Source of the DNA: Pristiophorus japonicus
Lineage: Eukaryota
Assembly: GCF_044704955.1 (NCBI RefSeq)
Contig: NC_091984.1
Coordinates: 206,460,001-206,524,000 of the forward strand
DNA: 64,000 nt
Reading direction: 5' to 3'
Made by a program: the position numbers and the translations under genes. Below are positions 5,924 through 51,377 of this stretch, one piece after another. Each line of letters begins with the position of its first letter. The stretch's first letter is position 1. The notes under the pieces are model-generated. The model worked only from the letters and a program-made list of their open reading frames with translations. It searched no databases and was not told the DNA's origin.

Positions 5924-6704
5924 GAGTTAAAAAAAGGTGACTTAAAGGTTGGCCAAAAAAAGTGAACAGGCACACATGTCTAGAGAGGGAATTCTAGAGA
6001 GGGAATGCCAGAGTGAGGCCAAGGCAGCTGAAAGCTCTGCCACCAATGGTGAAGCAAAGCAAGGGTAGGCTGCAGAAAAGGGCAGAATCAGAGGCAGTTG
6101 TAGAGATAGGCAGGCAAAGCCAGGGAGAGATTTGAAGACAGCAAGTTTAAATTCAAGCAGCAAGTTTAAATTCATTGTGCTGGGGACAAGGAGCCAATCG
6201 ATACAGCCTAGATTACATGTTCAAGTCTTGGAGGCCATTTCAGCCATTGCGAGCTTCACATCAAAGCTATCTAGTTCAATTTTCTGGTCTTTCCTCAAAC
6301 TTTCAATATTTATAGCATCACAGAAACATGAACCCATTCTAATTCAGAGGTGACAATAGTATATCCATAGTCCTGAACACTTAAATACAATCAAAGAATT
6401 GTATTGTGACATCCCCAATTCACAGCTCAGGCAGTGATACTGGCAATTCTTGTAAACCTGAACCGCGTTCATCTTCCCAAGAGGGAACTAGTTAAACAAT
6501 AACTATAACACACTTATATTTAACCCGAATACCCGAATAGTGTTAGTGTGGGAGCAAAGTGGGGGGGGTCACATTTTTTAAAAAAACAGGTTGCACTTTA
6601 AAACCAGACCGTCTTAGTACTGATGGGAATCTCGGATACACAGAAGCAATCGGAACCCAAACATGTCATTCACGAGGCAAGAAACCTCGCCAGCAGCCAC
6701 TTAC

Positions 6705-6805
6705 GGGTTGTTGTCGCTCATGGTCAGTAACAAGCTGCTGAGTAGCCTCACGTTGGAGTACAGGCCAGCGGCCACCATATCCCGGACGTGATCGATAACG
6801 TTCAT
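6705..6805 (-). CDS. ANAPC7: Anaphase-promoting complex subunit 7, coding exon 1
   Basis: ATG at 6805: MNVIDHVRDMVAAGLYSNVRLLSSLLLTMSDNNP, then donor CC/gtaagt. 101 nt. Confidence 0.96.
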
Positions 6806-6935
6806 CTTCTGCTGCCAGCGAAGTTCTCGGTGTGAACCCGACACCAAACTAGCACATCAAAAATGGCGCTGCGGGCCTCCGCATCCGGAGCTGCCCGATT
6901 ACTGCCTGAAGAATAATAATAACCGCCCGTCCTGG
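6806..6935 (-). promoter_or_regulatory. ANAPC7 5'UTR / CpG-rich promoter region
   Basis: Local CpG enrichment directly upstream of the start codon, with a YY1-like aaaatggcg near 6861. Confidence 0.55.
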
Positions 6936-38625: not shown

Positions 38626-38976
38626 GAAGCATGGAAGCAGATTGGGCACCTTTTCCTCAATCAGAGATAGTGCACAACATGAAGTGACCAATGTGAAGAG
38701 CAGCAAGAGAAATTGAAGAAGGAATCACCCCCTCAAACAAAAACCACAATTTTAATTCAATGTCTTAAATATTTTGGAATTATAAATGTAGAACTAAACT
38801 TTAATTAGCATAAAATGCTACTTGTGACAGAGGCATAATATATTCATTCTGCAACTTTTGTTTAAAAAAAAATCTCAAGTAGCTAAAATACTCTGACTAA
38901 ACACATTACATACCAATTTCCTGTCCTTCAAAAAAAATACAACTTATATAAATTTAAGAATGCTGCTTCCTCATAC

Positions 38977-39103
38977 CATCTTCCTGCTTGTGTCCAGGTT
39001 TCGCATACATAGCGTTGAGGGGAAATCCTGGCTCTCCAGGAATGGGAAAGTTAGTTATCCCCAAGGTATACATTTCCTTCTCTCCTTGATTTTTGGAGTT
39101 GCA
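38977..39103 (-). CDS. ARPC3: ARPC3 exon 5
   Basis: [42 protein letters not shown]. 127 nt. Confidence 0.97.
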
Positions 39104-39109
39104 CTATGT

Positions 39110-39530
39110 AAGAAAAGAAAAAAAAATGGATTTATATAAGCGCCTTTCACAACCACCGGATGTCCTAAAGTACTTTACAGACAATGAAGTACTTTTGAAG
39201 TGTAGTCACTGTTGTAATGTAGGAAACGCAGCAGATAATTTGCACACAGCAAGTTCCCACAAACAGCAATGTGATAATGACCAGATAATGTGTTTTAGTG
39301 ATGTCGATTGAGGGATAAATATTGGATAGGACACCAGGGATAACTTCCGTGCTCTACCTCGAAATAGACAAACGGGGCCTCGGTTTAACGTCTCATCTGA
39401 AAAACGCTCCTCCAACTGGGCAGCACTGGAGTGTCAGCCTCTGTTTTGGTGCTCAAGTCTCTGGAGTGGGACTTGAACCCACAATCTTCTGATTCAGAGG
39501 CGAGAGTGCTACTCACTGAACCACAGCTGA
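39110..39530 (-). mobile_element. DeuSINE whose 3' tail abuts the ARPC3 exon 5 acceptor
   Basis: tRNA head at about 39460-39530 (gggacttgaaccc, ctgaaccacagctgac), body, and tail ending ...cttatataaatccatttttttttctttcttacatag. Confidence 0.88.
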
Positions 39531-39933
39531 CAAAAAATGATCACTCAGATCCTAAAATAATCCAGAAGCATGTAAGGGATGAAATACACCATACTACTTT
39601 ACGAAACATAGAAAACTGTTCAGTAACTTCACAACTCAGAGAGAGATACAGCAGTAGCAGTCTAAATAGCAATGAGTTCCTGGATTTCTTCTATTGTCCT
39701 ACTACATTTGTAACAGCTTTTTGAGCGAATCCCTACTGTAACAGAAACATTCTAACCACCACTCTGCCTGACTGAAATCACTTCTTGACTAACTATGAAG
39801 CATTACTCAGATCACACACAGGATGGAATTATCTCATGTGGCACTACAGAAGCCTGGAGCTAGACTGCCTGCCAACCCTCACAGCTGACAAGAGCAGAGC
39901 AATAAAAGTTAGTGTATCAGCATTTCCCCTTAC

Positions 39934-40002
39934 CTTTTGTAATTTTTTGAGGCATTCAGTGATGTAGAGGGTGATATAAATCAAGGTTCTGTCAGCTTCA
40001 TT
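39934..40002 (-). CDS. ARPC3: ARPC3 exon 4
   Basis: [23 protein letters not shown]. 69 nt. Confidence 0.97.
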
Positions 40003-40964
40003 CTGCAAATAAAAACACGTTAGTTGAACATTCTAGAGTGCAGCATTAAAATGTAGGAACATAGGAACAGGAGTAAGCCCTTCAGCCCCTCGAGCCTGTT
40101 CCACCATTCAATTAGACCATGGCTGATCTGTTCCTTCTTCCGTAATCCTTAATGCCCTTGTCTAACACAAATCTATCAATCGCAGTTTTAAAATCATTTT
40201 ACTGGCCTTGCCTCAACAGCTTTTTTGGAGAGGGGAAAGTGAGTAGGGCACAGTATTGCAGGCAAAACTTACTTTTAAAATTATTCCCATTAAAACATAA
40301 GCGGCGGCATCTCATCATACCTGTTAAAGAGGAAGTCCCAAGTAACTGTACTCATTTTAATATGAAAGTGTTTAAGATTAAGCAAAGTAATGTCTGCTAG
40401 CCAGATCCCCAAGGAGACTTATCAGCACTCAAAGTGTAAACAAAATCGAAGAAGATTTTTTGTAAGTTTTTAAAAAAGAATAATTGAGGGAGACTCCCTC
40501 TAAGGAATGTATAACAGATTACTAGCTTCACCGTATTATGGTTTTATATCCCTATACTTAATAGGCTTGTTAATGTGTTTCTTTTTGAAAAGTATTTTTC
40601 CCCCTTTTTCTCAATCCCTACACACTAGAGGGCAGGCAGAGAATCTGCTCCAAGTGTTGCATCAATGCAACTCATGGATCAGTTAACAGGATGTGCACAT
40701 GAATGATGCATGATGACTATCCTTCTGATCTTCCTGCTCCTTAGGACATCCAGTTGGCTCCTCCCTATAGTGGTACGGCTGATATCAGGAATTCACTGAA
40801 AAGCAGCAGATGCAAATCCATATCCCACTATTTTATGCCAAAGTAATCTCACTGATATACTTTCTGCAGTGCATTATTCCCTTCAATGCGTATCAGATAT
40901 GACAGTCTCCATTTTTTTTAATAAATTCTTCAAAATATGACAAAATCATAGACCAAAAACTTAC

Positions 40965-41041
40965 CTTTATTTCATAGTTTTTGAAGAAAACATTTGCCTT
41001 AAAATAGTAGATTGCTTCATCAATTACATCAGTGTCTTTGG
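40965..41041 (-). CDS. ARPC3: ARPC3 exon 3
   Basis: (T)[25 protein letters not shown]. 77 nt. Confidence 0.97.
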
Positions 41042-42333
41042 CTGGAAGAAAAAATTATTGGTACTTCAATAATCAAATCGCATACTTAAATCCTTAAAAC
41101 ACATGACATTTCCTATTCTGTCCTCCCCAATCAGGAGATACACTTGACTAGTCAAGTAAGACATTCCAATAGTCAATGAACTCTCTTCTGCAGGCAACCT
41201 GGTCTAAACGAGAAAAGCTTGTCCTCTTAGAGAATGCTCAGGGTGAACAGATCACACAAAACTAGGATTCGTAGTCTGGTCTCCGTAGTTGAATTGCCTC
41301 TAAGCAAACTGATATTTTCTTAACTGCTGCAAACTACACAATTTTAGCACATATTATATTTGACTAAGAATGTGAAGTGACAGTCTCTACATAGGTTGAT
41401 AGACCACCAGGTGACTTGTGAGTGATACAAGACTAGAACCTCCTCAAGCTCATTTCATTCTCTAAACATGATCACAACTAATAAACTCACCTTCCGAGTG
41501 AAGCTTGAAAGTATAATTTACTAATAATTGCATTTTCCCTAACCACCCTCTCCATTCTCTCAAACTCTCTCTACCCAGGAGGAAGGTAGGTCAGCATCTA
41601 CTGCCAGGCCTCTGCTAATATCACTTGTAAATAGCTACTAGGTCTGAGTCACAAAAGGTGACTTGCCTTATAGTATTACAAATGTTTTACCTCAGCATCT
41701 CTCCAGGGAACTCAACCGAGATTCACTATTGTAAGTACAAATTAAATTTGCATTCAACAACTCCAATGGAGTGTTGTCCAATACATTTGCCACTGGCCAC
41801 ACCTGGCTAATTAGGAATCCAGATGTGGCTAACTGCATTTCTGATTAATAACAAATGAGTAATAGACACTGTCGTTGGGCATGGGATCTCAATACCCATA
41901 TTGACACAGTGTATGAATCTGTACTTTAACCTTTTTATGCATTTGTTGGTAAAATGGCAAAAAGAAAAGCAGTGTATGCAAGTGTTTGTTGATTGTTGGG
42001 AGTCCTTTATTACCTTGGCTGCTCAATGATGGTAGACAGTGAATAAGTAAATAAATGTGAAGTACATTTCTTTCTATTGTGTGTAAGGGGTTTTATGCAT
42101 GTGGCTAAAACTGTGTCACTGCAGCCACTCCTGTGGCTAGTCAGTAATTTCTATCGTGGCAACACTGCTCTAGTGCAACATGTCAATTTATAAACTATTG
42201 CACATCACTTAGCTCCCTAGCACCAAGATTCTCTTGAAAAATCATTAACTACAGTTTTTAATTGAAAAACTAACATTTAAATGGATAAAAGCATTATATA
42301 TATTATTTATAAAAAATACATCTCAAAACTTAC

Positions 42334-42433
42334 TTTCTTTGGCAGCTGGTCCTTTAAATTGGGTCCTAAGTGGCAATAATGCCATGTTTCCAATTAGTTT
42401 TACATCAGTGTCCATGAGGGTTGAATGATAAGC
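42334..42433 (-). CDS. ARPC3: ARPC3 exon 2
   Basis: [33 protein letters not shown]. 100 nt. Confidence 0.97.
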
Positions 42434-44590: not shown

Positions 44591-44894
44591 GAATGTAGGC
44601 TGCCCAATGAATGTCAACCATTAGATTACATTACAGAGCTCAAATCATTCATTTCAGAGCGCTAAACACGATATTTTCCCTACAAATAAAGTTTTTGGGA
44701 CATAAAAAACAAAAATAACTTTTTTTAACCTTGCTTAGGCCTTATTGGCCTACTTCCTGATCTCTCACATTCCATTTCATCATTTCTTTTACACTGCACT
44801 GCCACGAATTAACATCAATTCAGTGCGAGTTAAAAACACTCCGACATACAAACGTTTTAAAAAAAATATATATATATTTGTTAGGCAAACTTAC

Positions 44895-44900
44895 CGGCAT
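44895..44900 (-). CDS. ARPC3: ARPC3 exon 1 coding part (MP)
   Basis: aaaATGCCG/gtaagt in CpG-rich context. Joins exon 2 to give MPAYHS. Confidence 0.9.
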
Positions 44901-45237
44901 TTTAGAAACTGCAACGGAGCAAGCTCTGGAGATAAACGGAGTCTGCGCCTGTCAGTGTCAGCGCTTCCGCCTGTCCCACCCTGTCGGGAGCGAGTACGGC
45001 GAACGCCACTCTCACGTGACACAAGAGGTCAGGATACGCTGTGGCTGCGCAGTAAAGGTTTTCTTATGCTGTTAGGCTGCGCCATCGCGTTTAAGCATCA
45101 CGTGTGAAGATATCGCTTTTACTGCATATAAAGTGCAGCAATACAACTCATCACAGCACCCCTGAGCTTAGGAGGGAAGGTTTCGCCGGACCTGTGCTGG
45201 AATATTGTAGGAGGATAAGATTGTGTTTAGCTGAGGT
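44901..45237 (-). promoter_or_regulatory. ARPC3 5'UTR / core promoter with E-boxes
   Basis: CpG-rich, with TCACGTGA at 45012-45019 and CACGTG at 45099-45104. Confidence 0.6.
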
Positions 45238-46578
45238 CATCATGATCATCATAGGCAGTCCCTCAAAATCGAGGAACATTGGTGACAAGAACACGGATGA
45301 GCTTCACTCAACCATGGCTACTCTGGGCTCGTTAAAGGATTTTACGGTGGGCAATGATTGGGAGGCCTTTAGGGAAAGGCTCAAGTACTACTTTACAACA
45401 AATGACCTGATTTTGTGGTGGGGGGGTGGGGGGGGGACATGGACGCACTGAGAGAAAAGCGTACGGCGATATTGCTTTCCAGTTGTGATGAGGTTTACTG
45501 TCTTGTCAGGGATTTGCTGGCACCCGCGAGCGCCAGGGACAAGTCCTATGAGGAGCTGATTGAAACTGAAGGCGAGCATCCTCATGGCCAGGCACAAATT
45601 CTACCATCACTGCAGATCTGAGGGCCAGGATGTCACCAAATATGCTGCGGACCTCAGGAGACTCGCGGTGCCGTGTGATTTTGGCACACACCTTGATGAG
45701 GCGTTGCGAGACGTTTTTGTTCTGGGGATTGGCCATGAGGGTCTCCTTCACAAGCTGCTATCCACTGAACCCACAGTCACTCTGAAGCAAGCCATCACCA
45801 TCAGCCGGGCATTTATGACCTCGACTTGCAGCACCAAGCAGATGATCCACACAGTCTTGAACCCGGCAGGCACTGTCCACAGGACAGCGCCTGCCACGGA
45901 CAAAACTGCAGAACGTGGCTCTGCCCAGGGCAGAGAGCACGGACCTCGGGGTCCTGGAACTCAGAGTCCGCCAAGGGAGGCTAATCGAGTAGCACCATGC
46001 AGGCGCTGCGGAGGAAGCCATGGGGCTCACCGGTCAGGTTTGCGGAGTATACGTGCAATGCCTGCCACACAAAAGGCCACCTTCAGCGTATGTGCAAAAG
46101 AAACCTGACTCACTGTGTGGCTGAGGAGATGGTAAAAGATCCCAGCGAGGAGCAGGCAGAAGAAGATGAGGCCTTTGGACTGTATACGTGTACCGACGAT
46201 TCGGCCCCAGTGATTATGGAAGTCAAGATTAACGGAGTCCCAGTGAGTATGGAAGTGGACACGGGGTCGAGTCAGTCGTTGATGAGTCAGGAAACTTTTG
46301 ATAAATTGTGGGTCAACCCAGCTGCACGACCCAAGCTGGTGCCGGTCACGGCGAAGCTGCGTACCTACACCAGGGAACTGATACCTGTTCTTGGCAGAGC
46401 GGATGTGCAGGTATCTCACGGGGGTGAGACGCACGGTTTACCTTTGTGGATCATTGCAGGCGATGGGCCGACGCTACTCGGCAGGAGTTGGATGGGGAAG
46501 GTCCGTGGGAGCTGGGAAGACTTCATTCCTCCACAGACCGCTGTCCCCCGGGTTCCCAAAGAGCAGTGCCGACCGAGC

Positions 46579-47030
46579 TGGAGGAGAAAGAAGCAGTTCA
46601 TCGGCAGTCTCAATCCCCACACAGATGAGCAGACCCGGGAGAGCAGTTTTATAAGTACGGGCCGATCGCTGAGGTGCGAGCCGGCGGGGCGCTGCAGGCG
46701 ATGAACGGGAAATCCACCGATGGCCGGCAAGTCCGGGGGGCCCACTCGAAGAAAAAGTCGGACGGCGGTCGCGGCTGCGGTGGTGGCGGCTACGGCGGCT
46801 GCAGGAGAGGCAGAAATTACGGGGACAACGACAGGAGCAGAGGCTACAACGGCAGCGGAGGCTACGGCGGCGGCCGATGTGACTCGGGAGAGCACGATTA
46901 CTCGGGCGGGTACAAGAGCCAGAGCGGCGGATACGGCAGCAATTACGGAGGCCGCTCTCACAGGGACTATGACTGATCAATTCCAAAGAACCACTTCTGC
47001 CGGAGTCAAGATCAAATTGTTCTTGGCTGT
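46579..47030 (+). pseudogene. Captured processed copy of a CIRBP/RBM3-family cold-inducible RNA-binding protein mRNA
   Basis: KQFIGSLNPHTDEQTR[-1 shift]EQFYKYGPIAEV..ALQAMNGKSTDGRQVR..RGG/YGG tail..GGRSHRDYD* versus recalled RBM3/CIRBP KLFVGGLNFNTDEQ..FSKYGQISEV..AMNGKSVDGRQIRVD..GGNYRDNYDN. 3'UTR motif TCAAGATC...TGGCTGT at 47006-47030. Confidence 0.87.
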
Positions 47031-47930
47031 TTTTCTTCTTTTCTTTCTTCTTATTCCTTCTATTCCTTCTTTAAACTCCATCCACAACTGCACGAAGAGA
47101 GCAAAACGTCACGCCAGCGAGCTTAAGATGGTGGCGAGCCTCGTGGCAGCAGAGCCCTGCAGAGAAAGGCAAGCAGAGCAACTAAAATGGTGGCGCCCAG
47201 TGGAAGCCTCTTGGAAAACACAAAATGGCGTCTTAAAAGGGAAATGTACCCGGGAGTCTTAAAAGGGTCTTACCAAAAGAGACTTTTGTAAGGCAAGAGG
47301 GAATCTAAATGAGCAATGTGATTGTAGGATGACGGATTTATGATGAGTTAATGTTTTAATGCTGAATGGTTACTGTGTTGAAAATAATGGATAGGAATTA
47401 CGAAAAGAGTTAATACCACGAGGTACAAGTAAAAGGATAATGGATCCGTGACTAATGCGATTTTCGATTTATGTGCTTCATGCTATGGTTCAGCGGCTGC
47501 AGGTGAGCCGCTAAGGCGACTACTTTCTGAGAACAGAGGCAACGCACTAGTTGCGATACCTTGTCTCAGCGCAGCCCATTACCTCGGGCAAAAAGGGGCA
47601 GTATACCACCACCGTACCTCACCCAGAGGAGCTGGGATTAAATAACTGTTCACTGTACCTGCAACCTTTTGACATAACATCTGTACCACATATATGTACC
47701 ATACAAATGTACTGTCTATGTATACCTGCTTTCTGTTGGAGGTTATGCTCGTGTACTTCATCCCCCATGTAAGGACTGCAAACACCACGTGCTTGCACCG
47801 GATCGCAAGCATAATCTCCACATGGGAGAGAAGAGGGAAGTGGATGGTCATGGACTCACACTCACAAATTGACCAGGACGAACAAGGCCGAGGTTACCGG
47901 CAATGGCTTTTGGAACTGGGGGGAGTGAAA

Positions 47931-48143
47931 TGTTATGTATTGTCCAGGTACATTAAATGTATAAGTACAATGGTGTGCCACAGAGGGCGCTGTGGTGGGA
48001 GACCTGGAAAGTACCTGCAAGACAGAGTATAAAAGGCTGCCCACCACACCCGAGAGGCACTCTAGAGTTGAACAATAAAGGACTAAGGTCACAGCAGTTT
48101 CTACAACACCAGAGTCAGTAATTTGAGTGCTACATACATTACA
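47931..48143 (+). mobile_element. 3' LTR of Gypsy element 3
   Basis: TGTTATGT...ACATTACA termini, TATAAAA, AATAAA and gactaaggtcaca shared with the element 2 LTR. Preceded by the PPT. Confidence 0.88.
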
Positions 48144-49966
48144 ATAAGAACATAAGAAATAGAAGCAGGAGTAGGCCATTACAGCTCCTCGAGCCTGCTC
48201 CGCCATTCAATAAGATCATGGCTGATCTGATCATGGACTCGGGTCCACTTCCCACCTGCTCCCCATAACCCCTTATCGTTTAAGAAACACTCTATTTCTG
48301 TCTTAAATGTATTCAATGTCCCAGCTTCCACAGCTCTCTGAGGCAGCGAATTCCACAGATTTACAACCCTCAGAGAAGAAATTTCTCCTCATCTCGATTT
48401 TAAATGGGTGGTCCCTTATTCTAAGATCATGCCCTCTAGTTCTAGTCTCCCCCATCAGTGGAAACATCTCTGTATCCACCTTGTCAAGCCCCCTCATAAT
48501 CTTATATGTTTTGATAAGATCACCTCTCATTGTTCTGAATTCCAATGAGTAGAGGCCCAACCTACTCAACCTTTCCTCATAAGTCAACCCCTTCATCCCC
48601 GGAATTAACCTAGTGAACCTTCTCTAAACTGCCTCCAAAGCAAGTATATCCTTTCATAAATATGGAAACCAAAACTGCACGCAATATTCCAGGTGTGGCC
48701 TCACCAATACTTTATATAGCTGTAGCAAAACTTCCCTGCTTTTATACGCCATCCCCTTTGCAATAAAGGCCAAGATACCATTGGCCTTCCTGATCATTTG
48801 TACCTGCATACTATCCTTTTGTGTTTCATGCACAAGTACCCCCACAAGTGCTGCTGTACTGCGGCACTTTGCAATCTTTCTCCATTTAAATAATAACTTG
48901 CTCTTTGATTTTTTCTGCCAAAGTGCATGACCTCATACTTTCCAACATTATACTCCATCTGCCAAATTTTTGTCCATTCACTTAGCCTTATGTCCTTTTG
49001 CAAATTTTTTGTGTCCTCACACATTGCTTTTCCTCCCATCTTTGTATCGTCAGCAAACTTGGCTACGTTACACTCAATCCCTTCTTCCAAGTCGTTAATA
49101 TAGATTGTAAATAGTTGGGGTCCCAGCACTGATCCCTGTGGCACTCCACTAGTTACTGGTTGCGAACCAGAGAATTAACCATTTATCCCGACTCTCTGTT
49201 CTCTGTTAATTAGCCAATCCTCTATCCATGCTAATATATTACCCCCAATCTCATGAACTTTTATCTTGTGCAGTAACCTTTTATGTGGCACCTTGTCAAA
49301 TGCCTTCTGGAAGTCCAAATACACCACATCCACTGGTTCCCCTTTATCCACCCGGTTCATCACATCCTCAAAGAACTCCAGCAAATTTGTCAAACAAGAC
49401 TTCCCCATCATAAATTCATGCTGACTCTGCCTGACCAAATTTTGCTTTTCCAAATGTCCTGCTACTGCTTCTTTAATAATGGACTCCAAAATGTTCCCAA
49501 CCACAGATGTTAACTGGTCTATAGTTTCCTGCTTTTTGTCTTGCCTCCTTTTTTAAATACGGGCGTTACATTTGCAGTTTTCCAATCTGCTGGGACCTCC
49601 CCAGAATCCAGGGAATTTTGGTAAATTACAACCAATGCATCCACAATTCCTGCTGTTACTTCTCTTAAGACCCTAGGATGCAAGCCATCAGGTCCAGGGG
49701 ATTTATCTGCCTTTAGTCCCATTATCTTACTGAGTACCACCTCCTTAGTGAATGTGATTGTGTTAAGTTCCTCCCCCCTCCTATAGCCCCTTGACTATCC
49801 ACTGTCGGAATATTGTTAGTGTCCTCTACCGTAAAGACTGATACAAAATATTTATTCAGAGTTTCTGCCATCTCCATGTTCCCCATTACTAATGCCCCGG
49901 TCTCGTCATCTGAGGGACCAACATTTACTTTAGCCACTCTTTTCCTTTTTATATACCTACAGAAAC
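48144..49966 (-). mobile_element. CR1 LINE 3' fragment inserted at the end of the LTR
   Basis: ORFs 48303-49937 on minus carry CR1 RT motifs. Tail (ataagaac)n. Confidence 0.92.
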
Positions 49967-51377
49967 TATATAGGAATACTTGCTTCCACTCTAAATGTGA
50001 GTTCTCAGGTGACTGTACAGTCCAATATGGGAATTACAATCTCCGTCACAGGTGGGACAAACAGTTGTTGAAGGAAAGGGTGGCTGGGTGGGGAGTGGTT
50101 TGCCACATGCTCCTTCCGCTTGTTTTCTGCATGCTCTTGGTGATGAGACTCGAGGTGCTCATAGCCCTCCCGGATGCTCTTCCTCTACTTAGGGCAACAG
50201 AAGCAATGCCGCAGAAAAATCAACGCCTGGCACTCAAAGACCCAGTTAAGAGAGCCCTATACAGCCAGCGCCTCACTGCCAAGCCTCGATTACCCCAACG
50301 ATTGTTCTGCCCTCCATGCCACCATAACTAGCGCCTGCGAAGAGACGCTCGGTCACTCAACCAGGAAATACCAGGACTGGTTTGACGAGAATGACCAGGA
50401 GATCCAGGAGCTAATAAACCGCAAGCGCAGGGCATTCTGAACTTAAACCAGCAACCCAATTTGGGAGTAGCAAAGCAGCTCTACAGACGGCTGAAGGCCG
50501 AGGACCAACAAAAAACCCGCAAACTAAAGAATAGATGGTGGGTGGAGAACGCACAGGAGATTCAACAGCTGGCCGACAGCCATGACGTGAGAGGATTCTT
50601 CACTGCAGTTAAGCCCACCTATGGCTCAAGCACCCAAGGCCCCACCCCACTACTCATCAAGAACACCGAGGCAGTCAGGGCCCGCTAGAAGGAGCACTTC
50701 GAAGATCTTAACCGAGACTGTCTTTGACACAAATGTCCTCGACTCCATCCCGCAGCATGTTACCCGCCACCATCTCAGCAAAACCCCAGCCCTTCATGAG
50801 GTAGAAAAGGCCATCCGTGAACTCAAGAACAAGGCATCAGAAGCAGATGGAATCCCCGCTGATGCACTAAAGTATGATGGAGAAGCACTATTGGCATGAA
50901 TGCATGACCTCATCTCTCTTATCTGGAAGGAGGGGAGCATTCCGGGTGATCTCAGAGATGCCATAATCGTGACCATCTTTAAAAAAGGGGATGGGTCCAA
51001 CTGCGACAATTACAGAGGAATCTCCCTGCTGTCTGCCACTGGGAAAGTCATTGCTAGAATCCTCCTCAACCATCTTCTCCCTGTAGCTGAAGAGCTCTTC
51101 CCTGAGTCACAATGCGAATTCCGTCCTCTAAGGGATGCAACGGACATGATCTTAGCTGAAGTGCCGCCATGTTAAATAACCTGCCGCCGCTTCTCCGTGC
51201 GTGCCAACCTAAAAAAAATAGCTAAAGCTGATCAACGGTTTCATAAATAATGGCAGACCGCACAAAGCTCACAACTCCATTACAATACTGAATAAAAGCC
51301 GAATACAGGTGAAAGCAAGCACTTACGCTGAAAATCCATTGAGACGCAGGTTTGTAATTTGAGATATATCAAGTAAA

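Follow-up and report, generated by a model that had tools for sequence, protein, structure and literature searches.

The window analysed here is a stretch of 64,000 nt from the shark Pristiophorus japonicus (NC_091984.1, positions 206,460,001 to 206,524,000, forward strand), and at 45276-48143 it contains a retrotransposon copy in which part of a CIRBP-like cold-shock RNA-binding protein gene follows the protease. The copy was confirmed to belong to a family of elements of about 3.1 kb that lack pol and consist of long terminal repeat (LTR), primer-binding site (PBS), gag, protease (PR), cargo, polypurine tract (PPT) and LTR. The slot behind PR serves as a serial cargo site, with CIRBP just one of several cargoes in it. 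We consider it rather probable that this is a Ty3/Gypsy-type family that worked with borrowed reverse transcriptase (RT) and integrase (IN) and captured host RNAs one after another in the slot, the CIRBP extension being a passenger.

The family is amplified in the 5.9-Gb genome. A 26-nt pattern across the PR/CIRBP junction gave 157 matches with at most one mismatch and none for the reversed control, which supplied the copy count proposed as a check in the initial annotation of this DNA. Because the pattern recovers just 43 of the 55 known copies of the window type (subfamily A), about 200 copies is a floor. A search with the CIRBP segment returned 40 scored matches out of 1318 first-look candidates, neither of which is a copy number. 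The gag-PR-CIRBP order and the 3' module were common to all 29 non-self loci fetched and then to 10 of 10 more. The elements measured were 2.7-3.4 kb long, and sister copies had paired TG...CA LTRs, a PBS and a PPT. At the 45 loci with both ends, the LTR pairs were 90-98% identical (median 95.4%), and exact target site duplications (TSDs) of 5-6 bp were present at 36 of them, one pair of loci being the same place. These results bear out the early proposal of a non-autonomous Gypsy-type family with CIRBP that was amplified by retrotransposition.

As first annotated, no RT, RNase H or IN was found before the PPT and 3' LTR of the window copy, either in its reading frames or with Pfam. A sample blind to cargo was then formed from 45 elements picked by an exact LTR/PBS pattern that came from A copies and may be biased towards them; the sample comprised 23 elements of subfamily A, 12 of C, 3 B-like, 1 of D, 1 of E, and 5 that were truncated or rearranged. 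Among the 34 newly fetched loci of this sample, none had pol adjoining the family PR. The RT at locus L084, examined as a candidate for the family's own pol or its helper, belongs to a nested, different Gypsy element. No autonomous helper sharing the termini was found, the relatives seen being only about 71% identical in gag/PR DNA. The tentative Ty3/Gypsy assignment was made on a family with gag and PR and no pol to order, by way of a neighbouring element whose PR is 65% identical and is followed by a Ty3-like RT (E 1.6e-9); the family presumably belongs to the Mag clade. A second, more distant gag-PR element (L069:5939-7580) has about 70% DNA identity and no RT seen after its PR, which suggests that there are further pol-less families in the shark genome.

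Cargo was typed over 145 loci, some of which were repeat fetches of one place, and five subfamilies were distinguished. Subfamily E carries about 500 nt of GC-rich sequence of no source found, and D carries GC-rich sequence together with a spliced piece of NDUFA8. The cargo of B consists of a trimmed E cargo followed by the 5' untranslated region (UTR) and codons 1-45 of CIRBP paralogue 2, that of C is the B cargo plus antisense ADAD1 (89% to protein P0019), and that of A, the window type, is CIRBP with an ADAD1 remnant. Neither D nor E has pol or CIRBP, so the idea that CIRBP had replaced pol is not supported. The NDUFA8 cargo matched its PDB entry at E 2e-17, and in 4 of 4 D copies aligned its exon 2 was joined to exon 3 across an 11-kb intron. 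For the GC-rich D/E cargo no host source was found, the top matches fetched being family copies; locus L183 matches just part of the D cargo. Across the family, the host-RNA-derived sequence lies within the LTRs and has no poly(A). Intron loss was seen for the NDUFA8 and ADAD1 cargoes, and sister cargo at the post-PR site is thus both spliced and back-spliced, which upholds the RNA-level capture proposed at the outset. As a separate observation, four loci (L159-L162), at C20:79.7-80.7 Mb and on unplaced contigs, share a unit of more than 8 kb with 95-98% identity, and inside this unit there is a truncated NDUFA8-carrying copy; about 30 matches with equal scores suggest a large segmental array.

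The best PDB matches of the CIRBP-like cargo were CIRBP (E 0.004-0.007) and RBM3 (E 0.03), and its best named homologues were shark 'CIRBP-B-like' proteins. When the window cargo was aligned with the host CIRBP gene over 441 nt, 383 were identical, and the CIRBP/RBM3 identity recognized earlier therefore stands. The donors lie at C7:219.41-219.77 Mb (L064-L068), in a cluster of at least five CIRBP-like genes whose coding regions consist of one exon each. This cluster is a tandem one with three types of genes, which have orthologue-like proteins in other sharks and rays and are possibly old retrogenes. Because the coding regions of the donors are single exons, intron loss cannot be demonstrated for CIRBP, and its description as a spliced transcript is not supported. 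The window cargo is a chimera, with paralogue-2 alleles at nt 19, 24 and 25 and, as in the A copies, paralogue-1 alleles from nt 58 on. The start of the B cargo falls about 31 nt below a TATA-like box of CIRBP paralogue 2 in all nine copies shown. Just about 40 nt of CIRBP 3'UTR was captured. The part TCAAGATC of the 3'UTR motif first reported is indeed CIRBP 3'UTR; the TGGCTGT part belongs to the antisense ADAD1 piece, and the suggested cold regulation through the CIRBP 3'UTR was not upheld.

The cargo continued to change within subfamily A. A 69-nt deletion that takes out the middle of the RNA recognition motif (RRM), including RNP1, is present in 47 of 55 A copies, and one A locus retains the entire RRM. 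In later A lineages there is, in addition, an insert of 57 nt, a second deletion in the RRM or a frameshift of 23 nt. The insert is presumably an antisense piece of 7SL RNA, an identity that served as a lead. Loci L185-L198 include A lineages in which the Gly/Arg/Tyr tail has been expanded in tandem, and the 57-nt insert occurs in at least 40 near-identical copies. At L089 (oriented 1890-2244), the CIRBP tail of an A-type copy is replaced by about 350 nt of unrelated sequence, possibly another capture.

The ADAD1 cargo of subfamily C is antisense and runs in the order 3' part of exon B, exon C, exon A and 5' part of exon B. The host ADAD1 exons, of 174, 156 and 66 nt with AG/GT flanks, are spread over 44 kb of contig C28. 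The back-splice from exon C to exon A lies at these true splice sites in 23 of 24 subfamily C loci (21 of 22 distinct ones), the hallmark by which pseudogenes of circular RNA (circRNA) are recognized. Thirteen of the 16 aligned copies span 395 of the 396 nt of the circle at 93-96% identity, and the other three are internally deleted. No second copy of exon A or B was found between exon C and the next exon, in a scan that did not extend to the 13 kb separating exon A from exon B or to sequence upstream of C28:21174000, and a protein search with a stricter first look placed the ADAD1 exons at one host locus only. The three-exon circle (G000:C28:21177705-21221680; L148, L149, L152) forms one frame of 396 nt without a stop; its 66-nt exon is missing from P0019 and present in the Heterodontus protein P0020.

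The entry point of the circle is marked by a 9-nt stretch that is already present in 8 of 9 B copies without ADAD1; the antisense circle contains this stretch a single time, precisely where the circle is broken (by chance, about 0.0015). The insert stops one base short of this site and is followed by four added bases, after which the element sequence continues from a point 5 nt further back. Judged from these sequences, the insert points to RT priming on a circRNA followed by the copying of one turn. ADAD1 expression is testis-restricted in mammals, and given this the cargo points to activity in the germ line. We see even chances for a wider view, in which the family preserves, as a kind of fossil record, the RNAs that Gypsy particles contained in the shark germ line. 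In this view an LTR-element RT would prime its plus strand on a circle by a few complementary bases, copy exactly one turn up to its own primer and return to the element, the antisense insert being amplified afterwards.

We propose the following history. The family would make its own Gag and protease and borrow RT and integrase from a helper, and a post-PR slot that tolerates any sequence would let the errors that RT makes on host RNAs packaged alongside in germ-line particles accumulate and then be amplified. The E and D forms, with GC-rich cargo and in D a spliced NDUFA8 piece, would represent the first state. B would then have acquired the 5' end of CIRBP paralogue 2, from the predicted transcription start site (TSS) to codon 45. 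C would have arisen when a nascent plus strand paired over 9 nt with an ADAD1 circRNA, went once round it and rejoined the element 5 nt back, leaving the antisense insert. For A, RT may have crossed by homology from the 3'UTR of a CIRBP paralogue 1 RNA into the resident paralogue 2 piece, and a microhomology deletion may have joined PR in frame to CIRBP codon 6. Later A lineages would have lost RNP1, gained the probable antisense 7SL piece and frameshifted the tail. The apparent microsimilarity at the switch points was 9 nt where the ADAD1 insert begins, a long homologous stretch where the paralogues cross over, and 1-2 nt elsewhere. A gag-PR tree was built from 112 copies with full gag-PR, duplicates being left out; A nested with C, and 9 of 11 copies typed as B grouped with D/E. 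Because this tree is star-like with short internal branches, was midpoint-rooted and had no clade or root test, the inferred order from E through B and C to A rests mainly on the structure of the junctions.

To separate what mattered in replicating lineages from what did not, variants shared by at least five copies were compared with singletons, C>T and G>A changes being excluded. In gag-PR, the ratio of synonymous to nonsynonymous variants was 159/540 for singletons and 39/54 for shared variants (p 2e-4), and within A alone it was 112/309 for singletons and 15/7 for shared variants (p 9e-5). In the CIRBP cargo the corresponding values were 35/129 and 5/19 (p 1.0), from 55 copies and just 24 shared variants. 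Because shared variants lose amino-acid changes in gag-PR and not in CIRBP, these results show that gag-PR was under purifying selection and mattered to the replicating lineages, while none was detected on CIRBP residues. Ratios of nonsynonymous to synonymous net divergence (dN/dS) did not separate from the CpG-biased baseline in either gag-PR or CIRBP.

Several points weigh against serial capture of host RNA with a neutral CIRBP passenger. Besides the star-like tree and the few shared CIRBP variants, the net-divergence ratios of gag-PR (0.28-0.50) overlap the within-subfamily baseline (0.50-0.61). The 57-nt insert scored only a weak 8.2 bits (E 1.8, minus strand, short stretch) against Rfam 7SL, and an Rfam scan of five loci with the insert gave no match at E<=0.1. 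The ADAD1 insert is accompanied by a 5-nt duplication, with four additional bases on one side and microhomology on the opposite side, and the element sequence is complete around it; this pattern fits priming of the type used by long interspersed nuclear elements (LINEs) into a genomic master copy as well, and the Drosophila cases described in the article of Tan et al. (2016; PMC5131818) are all replacements, not insertions. For the antisense inserts (circADAD1 and the 7SL-like piece), and for those steps only, the main rival view, conceivable though on balance doubtful, is that LINE-type target-primed reverse transcription or templated break repair placed them in a genomic master and the LTR element just amplified them. 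LINE-like repeats are plentiful around the family loci. This route would, however, need two separate antisense hits in a slot of about 500 nt in still-active masters of a 5.9-Gb genome. The ADAD1 copy also halts one base before its own priming site, as expected of a strand meeting its primer hybrid, and 7SL is described in a review as the main non-tRNA RNA packaged by retroviruses, once patched into a recombinant (PMC4997597).

It is unlikely that the Gag-PR-CIRBP fusion, or an open low-complexity tail, aided subfamily A through RNA binding, particle assembly or RNA stability, with selection acting on the frame and not on the residues. The PR and CIRBP frames are joined in 44 of 53 copies, so the Gag-PR-RRM/RGG fusion of the initial annotation was right as to the frame; 6 of 51 copies are free of stops from PR through to the CIRBP stop. 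A is the largest class of the sample picked by LTR and PBS. Four large changes in the N-terminal half of the CIRBP part (5' fusion, -69, +57 and second deletion) all preserve the frame (1/81 if independent), which also counts against a pure passenger; the one shared frameshift lies near the end of the tail. Indels in multiples of three made up 9 of 12 shared and 27 of 63 private ones. However, RNP1 is deleted, the shared CIRBP variants, those of the tail included, are neutral, and the near-fixed codons differ from the host by 13 amino-acid-changing and 9 synonymous changes. A subfamily of 17 copies was amplified with the 23-nt tail frameshift, B, D and E were amplified without a fusion, and C is in frame in just 10 of 19. 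Slippage in triplet repeats accounts for many in-frame indels, and the pattern used for sampling may have inflated A. A functional fusion is therefore not what these copies argue for. Capture of the CIRBP pieces as DNA, by gene conversion or ectopic recombination involving the intronless C7 cluster, is less likely still. Such donors leave no splice junction that could prove an RNA step for CIRBP, but the paralogue-2 piece starts at the predicted TSS without promoter sequence, the neighbouring cargo in the same slot is spliced, and the 10-kb stretches that surround the five donor genes yielded no family element. Nothing was found to favour the ordinary single processed pseudogene landed in a dead element that had been named as a possible refutation; with the many junction matches, the module shared by all other loci fetched, the lack of poly(A) and TSDs that flank the LTRs, it can practically be set aside.

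The features of the window copy are listed in Table 1; they include the PBS, gag and protease already annotated. Its second zinc knuckle and PR run without a stop (45985-46704) into KKQFIGSLNPHTDEQTRE, the RRM start noted before, and the CIRBP-like tail ends in RDYD* at 46976, as was seen in the sequence and in the host-gene alignment. The 1-nt deletion placed near 46640 is real, one base being absent at 46636/46637 relative to the host CIRBP gene, and is private to this copy, not a family trait. The first annotation had missed the 69-nt RRM deletion (here at 46679/46680), the frameshift upstream in gag that puts the first knuckle in another frame than the second, the loss of the 5' LTR and the cargoes besides CIRBP. 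The gag region clustered with Retrotrans_gag in Atlas at 0.92, which was taken as a lead only, and the PBS is presumably of the tRNA-Ser(GCU) type. The ADAD1 remnant is only colinear in this copy, the full back-spliced form being kept in subfamily C. No 5' LTR was found in the window copy, and it seems to have been lost through a short-homology deletion.

Table 1. Features of the retrotransposon copy in the window (positions of the window).
Feature	Position	Strand	Evidence or remark
5' LTR end (last 3 nt) and PBS	45276..45292	+	PBS-like site starts at 45279; LTR end joined to PBS in sister copies
gag with two CCHC-type knuckles, frameshifted	45314..46215	+	ATG at 45314; zf-CCHC_2 E 0.003, below cutoff
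Aspartyl protease (PR) with its C-terminal end	46219..46560	+	Pfam Asp_protease_2 E 1.7e-7; DTG at 46258
Leftover of older GC-rich subfamily-E cargo, source not identified	46561..46590	+	same stretch within E cargo of L164, L165, L178
CIRBP-like cargo, codon 6 to stop and ~40 nt 3'UTR, two-paralogue chimera	46591..47016	+	
Antisense ADAD1 exon remnant, from subfamily-C circRNA cargo	~47016..47117	+	aligned to host exon G000:C28:21192891-21192998
Conserved 3' internal module, common to all cargo subfamilies	47118..47917	+	no pol domain found
PPT	47918..47930	+	
3' LTR, TG...CA, ~215 bp	47931..48143	+	matches both ends of sister copies

The copy adjoins ARPC3, lying about 380 bp upstream of its first coding exon and head to head with a CpG-rich promoter region, from which, without a 5' LTR of its own, it could be transcribed. 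ARPC3 is on the minus strand of the window (44860-45110 and 38957-42433, start codon 44900), and four of its exons match Pfam P21-Arc. The insertion is in the 3' tail of a minus-strand LINE nested in another repeat (45238-45278, 48144-49990); we take the LINE to be of the CR1 type and the outer repeat to be Penelope-like. Contigs from three of four sequencing runs, of unrecorded kind, match the window copy with 0-1 differences and with far higher depth over the CIRBP part, and were not used as evidence. One run from a second organism covered gag, PR and LTR with little cover of CIRBP and in a small share, and was not interpreted. Exon-like frames on the minus strand at 184-480 and 6704-6856 had no matching Pfam hit; the name ANAPC7-like is our assumption.

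Capture of host RNA by LTR elements is known (Tan et al., 2016; Dong et al., 2016); the notable part of the present case is the succession of cargoes together with the capture of a circRNA in one turn, and the CIRBP fusion and cold control are the weaker part. The LTR-mediated retrocopies, or pseudo-LTR retrotransposons, that Tan et al. describe from animals (PMC5131818) likewise have pieces of host RNA between LTRs in place of internal reading frames, microsimilarity at switch points, in-frame fusions, multi-gene chimeras and secondary retroposition, and the mouse 'Super' retrocopy among them combines four genes and Alu. In that account the copies occupy one to few loci, whereas in the shark each cargo state was amplified (at least 40 matches each for A, C, D and E), serial captures have surviving intermediates, and two of the cargoes were inserted in antisense with short duplications. 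The main text of Tan et al. does not contain the word 'circular'. Like the circRNA-derived pseudogenes reported by Dong et al. (PMC4897178), among them 33 high-confidence mouse circRFWD2 copies, the ADAD1 cargo has a non-colinear back-splice junction, no poly(A) and an association with LTRs. In the text of Dong et al. the mechanism 'remains mysterious' and LTR enrichment is shown just in the flanks, whereas the shark circle is inside a complete LTR element, antisense, one turn minus one base long, and starts at a 9-nt match to its carrier. Maize Bs1, as presented in PMC5131818, is also an LTR element with pieces of three host genes, partly in frame; it numbers 1-5 copies and is portrayed as a hybrid gene with a function, whereas the shark family has hundreds of copies and no residue-level constraint on its CIRBP cargo. 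Plant TR-GAG elements, as described in PMC8704663, share two LTRs, gag, the lack of pol and mobilisation in trans, and the shark family differs in keeping a protease and a cargo slot and in being vertebrate and Gypsy-related. Host-RNA packaging and patch repair by retroviruses are covered in review form (PMC4997597). Among papers mostly available without subscription, we found no report of the shark family or of full-turn circRNA capture, and the supplements of Tan et al. and Dong et al. may hold closer cases.

UniRef gives at least three copies of the element the name 'RNA-binding protein 3-like' (P0001-P0003), and cold-shock gene counts for this species may be inflated as a result. The family separates selection on Gag-PR in a pol-less element from a neutral cargo, and it offers a natural step-by-step series of host-RNA capture in a vertebrate LTR family whose intermediates are still in the genome. 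It also bears on how circRNAs are retrotransposed, a question left open by Dong et al. (2016). If the proposed one-turn copying is true, it would provide a mechanism for circRNA retroposition and would predict more one-turn antisense circles inside the internal regions of LTR elements, which can be tested by genome search.

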